Assembly (NCBI RefSeq): GCF_016026235.1
Contig: NZ_CP065613.1
DNA: 64,000 bases
Reading direction: 5' to 3' (one strand)
From: Escherichia coli
Lineage (GTDB): Bacteria; Pseudomonadota; Gammaproteobacteria; Enterobacterales; Enterobacteriaceae
The notes under the pieces were generated by a model, which saw only the letters and a list, made by a program, of their open reading frames with translations, was not told the origin of the DNA and did not search any database. This document shows positions 1,916 to 3,848 of this stretch, piece by piece; position 1 is the stretch's first letter, and each line of letters begins with the position of its first letter. The translations under genes were made by a program, and so were the position numbers.

Positions 1916-2099
1916 TATGACTTTCCGTGTCAAACCGGAATCTCTAATTTTGACGATTTTCTTTTTAGGTTTAATTCCCTGAGGGCGACGTAGCAGTAAA
2001 TCCGACGGTGAATCACGCTGATATTCGCGGGTTGGATACCGCATTACAGAGGTCCGTCATATGAGCCTGCCACTTTCTTACGTCGCGAATCAGCTTTGT

Positions 2100-3600
2100 T
2101 CCGCCGTCGCCAAGCGCTAACGTGGGTTACTCTTGTACCGGGCTACGTCGCCTTCAGGGAACTGGTTATTCTCATTTTTTATTTGTGACATTGTGGTTGT
2201 TGTGCGACAGATATTGCTATTCGGCCCATATCCCAGATAAAACCCGCCAGCTCACGTGCAACAGCAACAATTGTAATATTGACATTCTTTCCTTTGGCCT
2301 GAAGTTTTCGATACCTCTTACAAAGCCTGAGTTGAGCATCCCATGCTCTGTCAATGACGGGGCGGGGTAAATTTTCCTGCCTTTTTTGTATTGCCGGACT
2401 GATGCGTGCCGGATGACGGTAACTCCACGCTGCCTCGACCAATAGCTTTCTGGCATAGCTGTTTCCGGCTTTGGTAATGCTGCCCTGATGTCTGCTTCCA
2501 CCCGATGAATATTCTGATGGCGTGATACCAAACCATGACATCAGTTGTCGTGGATGTTCAAAACGGGTCAGATCACCCAGTTCAGAAATTAATCCAACCG
2601 CAGTAATAAACTGAATCCCTCGCATGGCTTGCAGCGCCTCTACTACCGGATACAGCCTCCATTCGGTAACGGCCTCCTTCAGGGCGGATTCCAGCCGTTC
2701 ACATTGTGCCTGCCGGTCTTCTATTGTACGACGGTGTTCGTCAAAAGCTAATTGTCGCCAGGGACTTTCGAATGAGTATTTGCTGAGCCAGCGTCGGTGT
2801 GCAGGGCCCCAATCTGCTCGCCCGACATAATGGACCCCATGAACCAGAAGAAACGATTTCAGACGTTGCCTTGCATGCCGTAAATCATCGCGGGCAGATG
2901 CCCATGCCCGGGCCAAATCCCGGAATGCCTCATCTTCAATGCCGGGTACGTAGACAGCAGAAAGATCTCCTGCACGCAGTGAACGCACAAGTCTGATGGC
3001 ATCACGGCGATCGGTTTTAACCCGCTCCCCCGGTTTTTTCGGGATAAGTGAGGGGCGCAGACCATGCAGTCAAAACCGGATTTCACCAGCCGACGATAAA
3101 GTCCATAACCACAGGGCCCCGCTTCATAAACGATACTGACCTGCGATGACTTTGACCTGAGACGTTTACAAAGATTCTGAATATCAGTAGGTGATGTGCC
3201 AATTTTACCCATCAGTTCAACAGGTTCTGAATTGATAGCATAAGCGACAGTAATCGATTCTTTGTGAACATCTAACCCGACGTACAATGTGTTATTGTTG
3301 TTCATGCTGGCCTCCGTGGTGGAAATACCGGGGTGTAGCAACAGCTCACCCATGCGGCTCTGACAACGATGTTAACCCGCGTTAAATATCCCACGTTGGC
3401 CAGCATCTGTCTCACGGAAAGTCATACTGCCTTACATGATATGTTGAATCCTACAAAAGATACCAATTGGAATTCCACGTATATCTACAAATCCAGACAT
3501 GAGATGTTGCCTGTTAATCTTACTCAGGAAACACTTTTCAGCTCCAAATCTCATGGTAAATATGCGCTTTTCCCAATTTTTACTGCGAGTTGGCGAGCTA
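2100..3600 (-). mobile_element. IS110-family insertion sequence (boundaries approximate)
   Basis: Recombinase with IS110-type N-terminal RuvC-like region (YVGLDVHK, KTDRRDA) and C-terminal GIQFITAVGLISELGD motif; sits in the yjbI-ubiC intergenic region, which is about 1.9 kb here; element GC content is higher than the AT-rich flanks. Ends not determined. Confidence 0.6.
2179..3305 (-). pseudogene. IS110-family transposase/recombinase, interrupted by a 1-bp frameshift near 3052-3055
   Basis: Two overlapping ORFs from the track (2859..3353 and 2179..2988) are the N- and C-terminal parts of one protein; reading through the G4 run at 3052-3055 as G5 would join ...GFDCMVCAP to SLIPKKPGERVKTDRRDAIRLVRSLRAGD...; likely start is MNNNNTLYVGLDVHK at 3305. 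Confidence 0.75.
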
Positions 3601-3848
3601 CTCGTATAAAGAATAAAGGTATTTAAGTAAAGGAAAACATCACCGTTCCTGGCATCATGGGCGGTGATGCCCCTATGGTTGCCCTCGCCAGCACGGGCAT
3701 CGGCAAAGCGTAAGGTTCAACAGCGTTTTACCACTTCATGCGATTGTTGCGTTTTTGTTGCGCATTAGATCACTTAATTTGCTTTACATCTCCCGTAAAC
3801 ACTTTTCTGCGATACAATGCCTTTACGTTATGTAACGGAGAGTTCGGC

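Follow-up and report, generated by a model that had tools for sequence, protein, structure and literature searches.

A copy of ISSso6 inside the yjbI pseudogene of Escherichia coli: a predicted target-guiding RNA and a probable homopolymer miscall in the recombinase gene

The window analysed here is a stretch of 64,000 nucleotides of Escherichia coli DNA, in which yjbI is interrupted upstream of ubiC by an insertion sequence of the IS110 family. In K-12, yjbI is a pseudogene (b4038), and elsewhere it is annotated as a frameshifted SopA-family gene. The insertion lies within yjbI, 194 bp short of its annotated end, and the locus is made up of the following features (positions and strands are those of the window).

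779-1913, plus strand: 5' part of yjbI (SopA-family, pentapeptide repeats), whose open reading frame now stops at a TGA (1913-1915) made by the end of the insertion sequence.
1912-1913, no strand: CT core dinucleotide, the copy on the flank side, with the other copy at 3431-3432.
1914-3432, minus strand: ISSso6 insertion, 1,519 bp including one copy of the CT core (AG on the transposase strand), delimited as the gap against the empty site.
1914-2178, minus strand: 3' non-coding region of the element, 265 nt, compared with 127 nt upstream of the gene.
1917-1929, minus strand: subterminal inverted repeat of the right end, reading CACGGAAAGTCAT on the transposase strand; the motif is kept in relatives.
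3413-3425, minus strand: subterminal inverted repeat of the left end, reading ATGACTTTCCGTG on the transposase strand; it matches 1917-1929 exactly, in inverted orientation, over 13 bp.
3433-3626, plus strand: displaced 3' end of yjbI (64 codons and the stop), annotated as a SopA-family fragment in FDAARGOS_943.
3627-3848, no strand: native yjbI-ubiC spacer, 222 bp, identical in length in K-12; the ATG of ubiC is at 3849.

The ends of the element were placed by alignment with the empty sites of E. coli UTAK-12 and K-12 MG1655, in both of which the gap corresponds exactly to 1912/1914-3430/3432. In the UTAK-12 alignment, the empty site reads GCGCT/TACATG and the occupied site GCGCT/GATATG...ACTGCCT/TACATG. 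As in other members of the IS110 family, terminal inverted repeats are absent, the target is not duplicated past the short core, and CT/AG is the sole ambiguity between element and empty site. Joining 779-1913 to 3433-3626 restores an open reading frame of 442 amino acids. A first-pass annotation of this DNA had placed the insertion in the yjbI-ubiC spacer and given it an extent of about 1.9 kb (1916-3848). Both statements have to be corrected: the element occupies 1914-3432 inside the pseudogene, and the longer interval is the distance from the truncated yjbI frame to ubiC, composed of the insertion sequence, the yjbI 3' end (3433-3626), and the native spacer (3627-3848). The same annotation was right that K-12 carries no insertion sequence here and that the insertion is strain-specific, as MG1655 has the empty site and the yjbI locus is occupied in only 5 of 5,426 complete E. 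coli genomes (the site is empty in more than 5,400). Alignment with K-12 gave the exact insertion point; however, equality of the intergenic region with that of K-12, which it would have read as evidence against an insertion, would have been a misleading sign, because the spacer is 222 bp long in both strains.

It had also been suggested that the element sits next to the ubiCA promoter. The nearer end is in fact 416 bp from the ubiC ATG, and the recombinase gene is transcribed away from ubiC. The sole strong outward-facing promoter element is a -35 hexamer in the right end, which aims into yjbI on the side opposite ubiC. Given the intact native spacer, this distance, and the orientation of both the gene and the outward -35 element, an effect on ubiCA expression is, from the layout of the locus, unlikely. 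With yjbI dead beforehand and neither the spacer nor the promoter region of ubiC altered, the effect on the host should be negligible; the site is rare yet unremarkable, lying within a pseudogene.

By its DNA, the element is a copy of the catalogued ISfinder insertion sequence ISSso6, a member of the IS110 family and, within it, of the IS1111 group. It is 99.9% identical to copies annotated as 'IS110-like element ISSso6 family transposase', for example in E. coli FDAARGOS_943. ISSso6 is listed in ISfinder from Shigella sonnei and is also found in S. boydii, S. flexneri, S. dysenteriae, and enteroinvasive E. coli (EIEC); its ends, subterminal repeats, and 3' non-coding region are those of the present copy, which differs from the reference by one base missing from a G5 run and one single-nucleotide polymorphism (SNP). 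Placement in the IS1111 group rests on the subterminal repeats and on the non-coding region downstream of the gene being the longer one, both of which have been described as hallmarks of the group (Siddiquee et al. 2024, PMC11187229; Durrant et al. 2024, PMC11208160). The 13-bp repeats sit 3 and 7 bp inside the element ends and fall within the 7-17 bp set for the group. Moreover, Durrant et al. (2024, Nature, PMC11208160) enter ISSso6 in a supplementary table as 'RE, IS1111', placing its predicted bridge RNA at the right end. ISSso6, an RNA-guided IS1111-group element, is already known in identity and kind, and the label 'IS110-type' used previously is correct for the family but not for the group. 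Copies in E. coli that are 95% identical were considered as possible reprogrammed natural variants; this was rejected, as they are truncated by another insertion sequence and not retargeted.

The recombinase gene is read from the minus strand and is divided by a run of four G residues. The features relevant to it are listed here.

3056-3305, minus strand: transposase gene before the frame break, with its ATG at 3303-3305; encodes D12 and E61.
3052-3055, no strand: G4 run (C4 on the coding strand) at which the frame breaks; G5 in all other copies compared.
3033-3039, minus strand: A_AAA_AAC heptamer, in register only in the G4 version; a speculative -1 frameshift site.
2179-3051, minus strand: transposase gene after the frame break, with its stop at 2179-2181; encodes D99, D102 (KTDRRDA), and S268-G269.
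2212, no strand: lineage-specific SNP giving M365I, T here and C in most copies; also in GCA_900449985.1 and GCA_031665325.1, both of which have G5.

Two overlapping open reading frames, 2859-3353 (164 amino acids, containing YVGLDVHK) and 2179-2988 (269 amino acids, containing GIQFITAVGLISELGD), are mutually out of frame at GGGG 3052-3055, and the addition of one G at this position fuses ...GFDCMVCAP to SLIPKKPGERVKTDRRDA... in a single protein of 375 amino acids, exactly as the first-pass annotation had read it. The motifs on which that annotation recognized an IS110-family recombinase (YVGLDVHK, KTDRRDA, and GIQFITAVGLISELGD) are all present in the frames, and the assignment is borne out by profile searches: the G5-restored protein reaches 273.9 bits, against a cutoff of 140 bits, with the NCBIfam model NF033542 ('IS110 family RNA-guided transposase') and contains the Pfam domains PF01548 (DEDD_Tnp_IS110, N-terminal, E 6.7e-11) and PF02371 (Transposase_20, C-terminal, E 1.6e-23). 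Its one difference from the ISfinder ISSso6 transposase is M365I (reference sequence from the supplement of Siddiquee et al. 2024, PMC11187229). From alignment, the catalytic DEDD tetrad would consist of D12, E61, D99, and D102, the last two within KTDRRDA, and the serine motif would be GITPSEYSSG, which contains S268-G269 and follows the expected pattern G--P----SG; KTDRRDA and the SG motif align with KTDTVDA and ESG of the IS621 transposase (PDB 8WT6). The frame breaks at codon 85/86, leaving D12 and E61 on one side and D99, D102, and S268 on the other, and neither fragment should therefore be able to act alone. As written, the record lacks the single uninterrupted recombinase frame that an autonomous copy needs, because G4 splits it.

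Other copies bear on whether the missing base belongs to the cell or to the sequence record. The record closest to the window, the independent assembly GCA_900449985.1, shares the locus and T2212 and is identical over 4,915 bp, but has G5. Two loci of GCA_031665325.1 and one 1.5-kb collapsed contig from a short-read draft likewise combine I365 with G5. In a collection of 15 billion proteins, the exact 148-amino-acid product of the G4 version turns up on just 11 contigs; each of these exceeds 0.2 Mb, and the Logan read-set assemblies contribute none. For the intact protein, the index lists 2,016 blocks, 853 of which have contigs shorter than 2 kb. The G4 calls on these 11 contigs are spread over many loci (10 or more), at least two of which (L014/L017 and L010/L018) have G5 at the orthologous site in other assemblies. 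Furthermore, assemblies with G4 show additional one-base deletions in runs of C, T, and A within a few kilobases, and other records instead lack one base in the neighboring A6 run or in the G5 run that follows. This pattern fits recurrent under-calling of a homopolymer better than a circulating allele, and G4 is probably a long-read miscall that hides an intact gene. Since the nearest related assembly has the gene intact at the same locus, a miscall or a very recent slip is favored: the loss of 1 bp from the G5 run is private to this sequence record and, if real, would represent such a slip and not decay at the level of the lineage. The first-pass annotation had named the right pair of alternatives, a decayed element or a homopolymer sequencing error, and the evidence leans toward the error or a very recent slip. 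One argument for an artefact, that the window assembly is generally ridden with indels, fails, as only 2 single-base indels separate the window from FDAARGOS_943 in about 48 kb, of which the one other than the G4 run is intergenic.

That cleanness speaks for a genuine 1-bp deletion, which would make this a freshly inactivated ISSso6 with two halves each short of catalytic residues. Frameshifted ISSso6 copies are annotated in several RefSeq genomes, and real frameshifts in insertion sequence transposases are common in Shigella and EIEC lineages. With its ends, subterminal repeats, and RNA region all intact, such a copy might still be moved, though only by recombinase supplied in trans from another copy; it has been shown for ISEc11 that recombinase and RNA can work in trans (Siddiquee et al. 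2024, PMC11187229). The closest relative, however, combines the same private SNP and identity over 4.9 kb with G5, the exact frameshift product is found on none of the short-read contigs in the protein collection, and G4 recurs at many loci only in long-read assemblies that carry other homopolymer deletions; a genuine deletion is accordingly a possible but rather unlikely explanation. Far less credible is a third one, in which G4 is real and expressed, and a -1 ribosomal slip, or an extra A added in transcription, at A_AAA_AAC restores the frame and yields full-length recombinase at a low level. The heptamer lies 12 nt downstream of the deletion, where the G4 codons read CGA AAA AAC; its register is correct only in the G4 allele, and the predicted product would again have 375 amino acids, with the changes S86H, I88S, and P89R. 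The occurrence of G4 copies at 10 or more loci is also in line with it. The insA-insB' gene of IS1 uses the A6C heptamer A_AAA_AAC for programmed -1 frameshifting. The same heptamer is in register in the G4 allele of ISSso6, with no sign of its use, no stimulator, and an arrangement absent from all relatives. The match in register is a one-in-three chance, the 60 nt downstream fold no better than shuffled sequences (z +0.49), which leaves no stimulatory structure, and G5 orthologues of G4 loci exist elsewhere. A single frame runs without interruption in each of the 77 relatives and in the ISfinder reference, the relatives giving single-frame matches that span residues 1-368, and the two-frame arrangement is thus not conserved. 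Programmed frameshifting was therefore rejected as the main explanation on account of the single frame in relatives and the lack of downstream structure. If G4 were a genuine, recurring, and tolerated allele and the slip did take place, it would provide a naturally attenuated, frameshift-controlled bridge recombinase, and the presence of G4 at many loci would be explained. The reading preferred here remains that of a long-read miscall over an intact gene.

The choice of the yjbI site can be understood from the other insertions of ISSso6. Across E. coli, Shigella-type, and related assemblies, 18 distinct insertion sites were gathered. Read in the direction of the recombinase gene, these sites take the form ...GTA-AG-[element]-AG-CG..., with the consensus GTA-AG-CG (n = 18); AG is found on both sides in 17 of the 18 independent insertions, and the remaining one has GG on the right-end side. 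At many sites, the right flank is identical while the left flank varies, the common sequence begins exactly at GTAAGCG, and the genes just beyond belong to the IS66 family (TnpB_IS66, DDE_Tnp_IS66). On the strength of this shared flank and the adjoining genes, ISSso6 naturally targets the terminus of elements of the IS66 family. By sequence comparison, the site in yjbI, ATGTA-AG-CGCTGGG, is a look-alike of that terminus.

A predicted RNA in the 3' non-coding end of the element could account for this choice. The first-pass annotation did not mention a bridge or seek RNA in these 265 nt. The parts of the RNA and the adjacent promoter element are as follows.

1975-2161, minus strand: predicted bridge/seek RNA scaffold, about 187 nt, with a long basal stem formed by UUCCCUGAAGGCGACGUAGC and GCUACGUCGCCCUCAGGGAA (minimum free energy, MFE, fold and RNAalifold consensus).
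2113-2121, minus strand: putative 5' target guide GUUAGCGCU, complementary to the core and right flank (ideal, AGCGCTAAC; at yjbI, AGCGCTGGG).
2085-2111, minus strand: hairpin between the two target guides, kept in relatives.
2077-2083, minus strand: putative 3' target guide ACGUAAG, of the same sense as the left flank and core (ideal, ACGTA-AG; at yjbI, ATGTA-AG).
2018-2025, minus strand: tentative candidate donor guide AAUAUCAG, which lies in the second internal loop and has the sequence of the right-end terminus and core.
1928-1933, minus strand: perfect -35 hexamer TTGACA, 14 nt from the right end, kept in relatives.

The scaffold lies downstream of the recombinase gene and is kept in 43-51 relatives. 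A scan of positions 1-8000 against Rfam, with E values up to 1, returned no family for the 3' non-coding RNA and only REP-like matches elsewhere. Because the MFE fold of the single sequence pairs the guide segments with other regions and is unreliable for the loops, the alignment consensus was used instead. As a check on the guide role of GUUAGCGCU and ACGUAAG, 77 loci encoding relatives with 64-88% protein identity (mostly 71-81%) were collected, the majority from Paraburkholderia, Caballeronia, and Cupriavidus. Their 3' regions align over the full length and give one scaffold, which consists of the basal stem, an internal loop whose strands are parted by a conserved hairpin, and a second loop with another hairpin. 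Hypervariability is confined to exactly two segments of this scaffold, which form the two sides of the first loop and coincide in position with GUUAGCGCU and ACGUAAG.

These two segments vary together with the insertion sites of the respective elements. In 30 non-redundant relatives, the 5' guide matches its cognate core and right flank by Watson-Crick pairing at 6.2 of 9 positions, compared with 3.44 of 9 for non-cognate flanks, a difference reached in none of 20,000 permutations. The identity of the 3' guide with the left flank and core (31 non-redundant relatives) is 5.26 of 7 for cognate and 3.6 of 7 for non-cognate pairs, again with 0 of 20,000 permutations, and the covariation of guides and flanks persists when the core positions are left out. 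In ISSso6 itself, GUUAGCGCU is the reverse complement of AG+CGCTAAC and the top 9-mer of the whole element against 10 right half-sites (z 3.8). Compared with the 18 distinct sites, GUUAGCGCU pairs with AG+CGCT.. and ACGUAAG matches ..CGTA+AG, so that both guides include the core. A positional scan of the whole element that tolerates G:U pairs ranks the 5' guide first and the 3' guide fifth, the left half-site being information-poor on its own; the covariation across relatives was what decided the matter. The order of the guides is also that of IS1111-family seekRNAs, in which the top-strand match lies 5' of the bottom-strand match (Siddiquee et al. 2024, PMC11187229). RNA-guided targeting by ISSso6 is thus well supported by comparison. 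The recognition of the element's own ends is less clear: AAUAUCAG is invariant in relatives, as is the right-end terminus, and a search of the RNA for a left-end partner donor guide gave no convincing candidate, UACUGC being partly buried in the basal stem.

Taken together, these features suggest the following mechanism. The element encodes a DEDD/serine recombinase and a predicted RNA of approx. 190 nt in its 265-nt 3' non-coding end, in which two short guides within one internal loop would read both strands of the target. GUUAGCGCU is predicted to pair with the top strand of the core and right flank, and ACGUAAG with the bottom strand of the left flank and core; the programmed site would be ACGTA-AG-CGCTAAC, which is essentially the terminus of IS66-family elements (GTAAGCG...). 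At the look-alike in yjbI, integration took place without duplication past the AG/CT core. Excision presumably takes place as a circle, with the predicted junction ...GTCATATC-AG-GCAGTATGAC..., and circularization would bring TTGACA of the right end to within 17 bp of CAGTAT (3424-3429) of the left end. As junction promoters have been demonstrated for ISEc11 and ISEc21 (Siddiquee et al. 2024, Nat Commun, PMC11187229), we infer that TTGACA and CAGTAT may likewise form a promoter across the junction, which would drive the recombinase gene.

ISSso6 shares much with systems that have been characterized experimentally. ISEc11, ISKpn4, and ISPa11 are IS1111 elements whose seekRNAs have been studied by experiment, and they likewise have subterminal repeats, carry their non-coding region 3' of the gene, match the target in two short segments (the one for the top strand lying 5' of the one for the bottom strand), and divide a promoter over the circle junction (PMC11187229). 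ISSso6 differs from them in its target, in the predicted status of its RNA, and in its longer recombinase (375 amino acids versus the 330-350 quoted for the IS1111 family). IS621 also combines a DEDD/serine recombinase with a CT core and internal-loop guides that read both strands (Durrant et al. 2024, PMC11208160; PDB 8WT6-8WT9). However, its RNA is in the left end, its subterminal repeats are merely 2-3 bp long, and the similarity of its protein to that of ISSso6 is weak (E 2e-5) and limited to the C-terminal, serine-motif domain. According to Partridge and Hall (2003), as cited in PMC11208160, IS4321 and IS5075 of the IS1111 family target the terminal repeats of Tn21-family transposons. As with ISSso6, their insertions lie a few bases into a terminal repeat that belongs to a different mobile element; for ISSso6 this is the IS66-family GTAAGCG terminus, and both host element and target sequence differ.

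The approximately 50 relatives from Burkholderiaceae offer a clean set of natural elements in which covariation of the target guides can be followed for this IS1111 subgroup. With respect to the G5 run, it is repeatedly miscalled, or slipping, in long-read assemblies of Shigella and EIEC. A single homopolymer call thus decides whether the gene is labeled a pseudogene or an active RNA-guided recombinase.

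Upstream of ISSso6, an IS110-family element, yjbI is split into two open reading frames. This split agrees with the yjbI frameshift that annotations of other E. coli record; yjbI was a pseudogene already, prior to the ISSso6 insertion. The features in the window that are discussed here are the following:

527-721 and 779-1915, the two yjbI open reading frames upstream of the insertion sequence (64 and 378 aa, respectively)
5243-5380, REP-like sequences downstream of ubiA, with sub-threshold Rfam matches to naRNA4 and ES036
47202-47688, an array of a 113-bp unit (4.3 repeats, 95% matches) made of REP-like palindromes

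The naRNA4 match at 5243-5380 scores 40.1 bits, compared with a gathering score of 59.5. Alignment to the annotated E. coli genome FDAARGOS_943 places the 113-bp array between yjcO and gltP, and it is an ordinary BIME-type cluster.

The window strain and FDAARGOS_943 are 99.96% identical. Apart from the break in the ISSso6 recombinase frame, the sole single-base indel in approx. 48 kb lies at window position 29686, where the window has a T7 run and FDAARGOS_943 a T8 run; according to the reference annotation, this position is intergenic, between ghxP and soxR. FDAARGOS_943 also carries added sequence at window positions ~15400 and ~20400, at both of which the window is uninterrupted. These additions correspond to two insertion sequences of FDAARGOS_943, an annotated IS5 that interrupts the quinone oxidoreductase gene and, close to aphA-tyrB, an IS1; thus, the IS content of the two strains differs.

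Further ISSso6 copies annotated as frameshifted are found in RefSeq E. coli (loci L003, L004, L006, L037, and L038), and the breaks that have been placed to date match positions 2359 and 2380 of the window. That the frame is broken at different homopolymers suggests that many 'pseudogene' calls for ISSso6 in long-read assemblies may be technical.

In GCA_031665325.1, which belongs to the window's lineage, two loci (L022:2893-3098 and L023:2893-3054) contain a full ISSso6 followed by AG and an extra, partial right-end tail. In terms of the 3' non-coding region, the second tails begin at position 63 or 107, and the start in L022 falls within the DNA encoding the 5' guide (GTTAG|CGCT). ISSso6 appears to have inserted into the guide-coding DNA of another copy, which necessarily mimics the target, and homologous recombination after insertion appears to have left the duplicated tail.

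Paraburkholderia, Caballeronia, Cupriavidus, and Variovorax are rich in ISSso6-like recombinases (71-81% identity; genome contig loci L039-L115). Since these relatives have the RNA scaffold and end motifs in common, while their guide pairs and targets are of many different kinds, they constitute a natural retargeting series.
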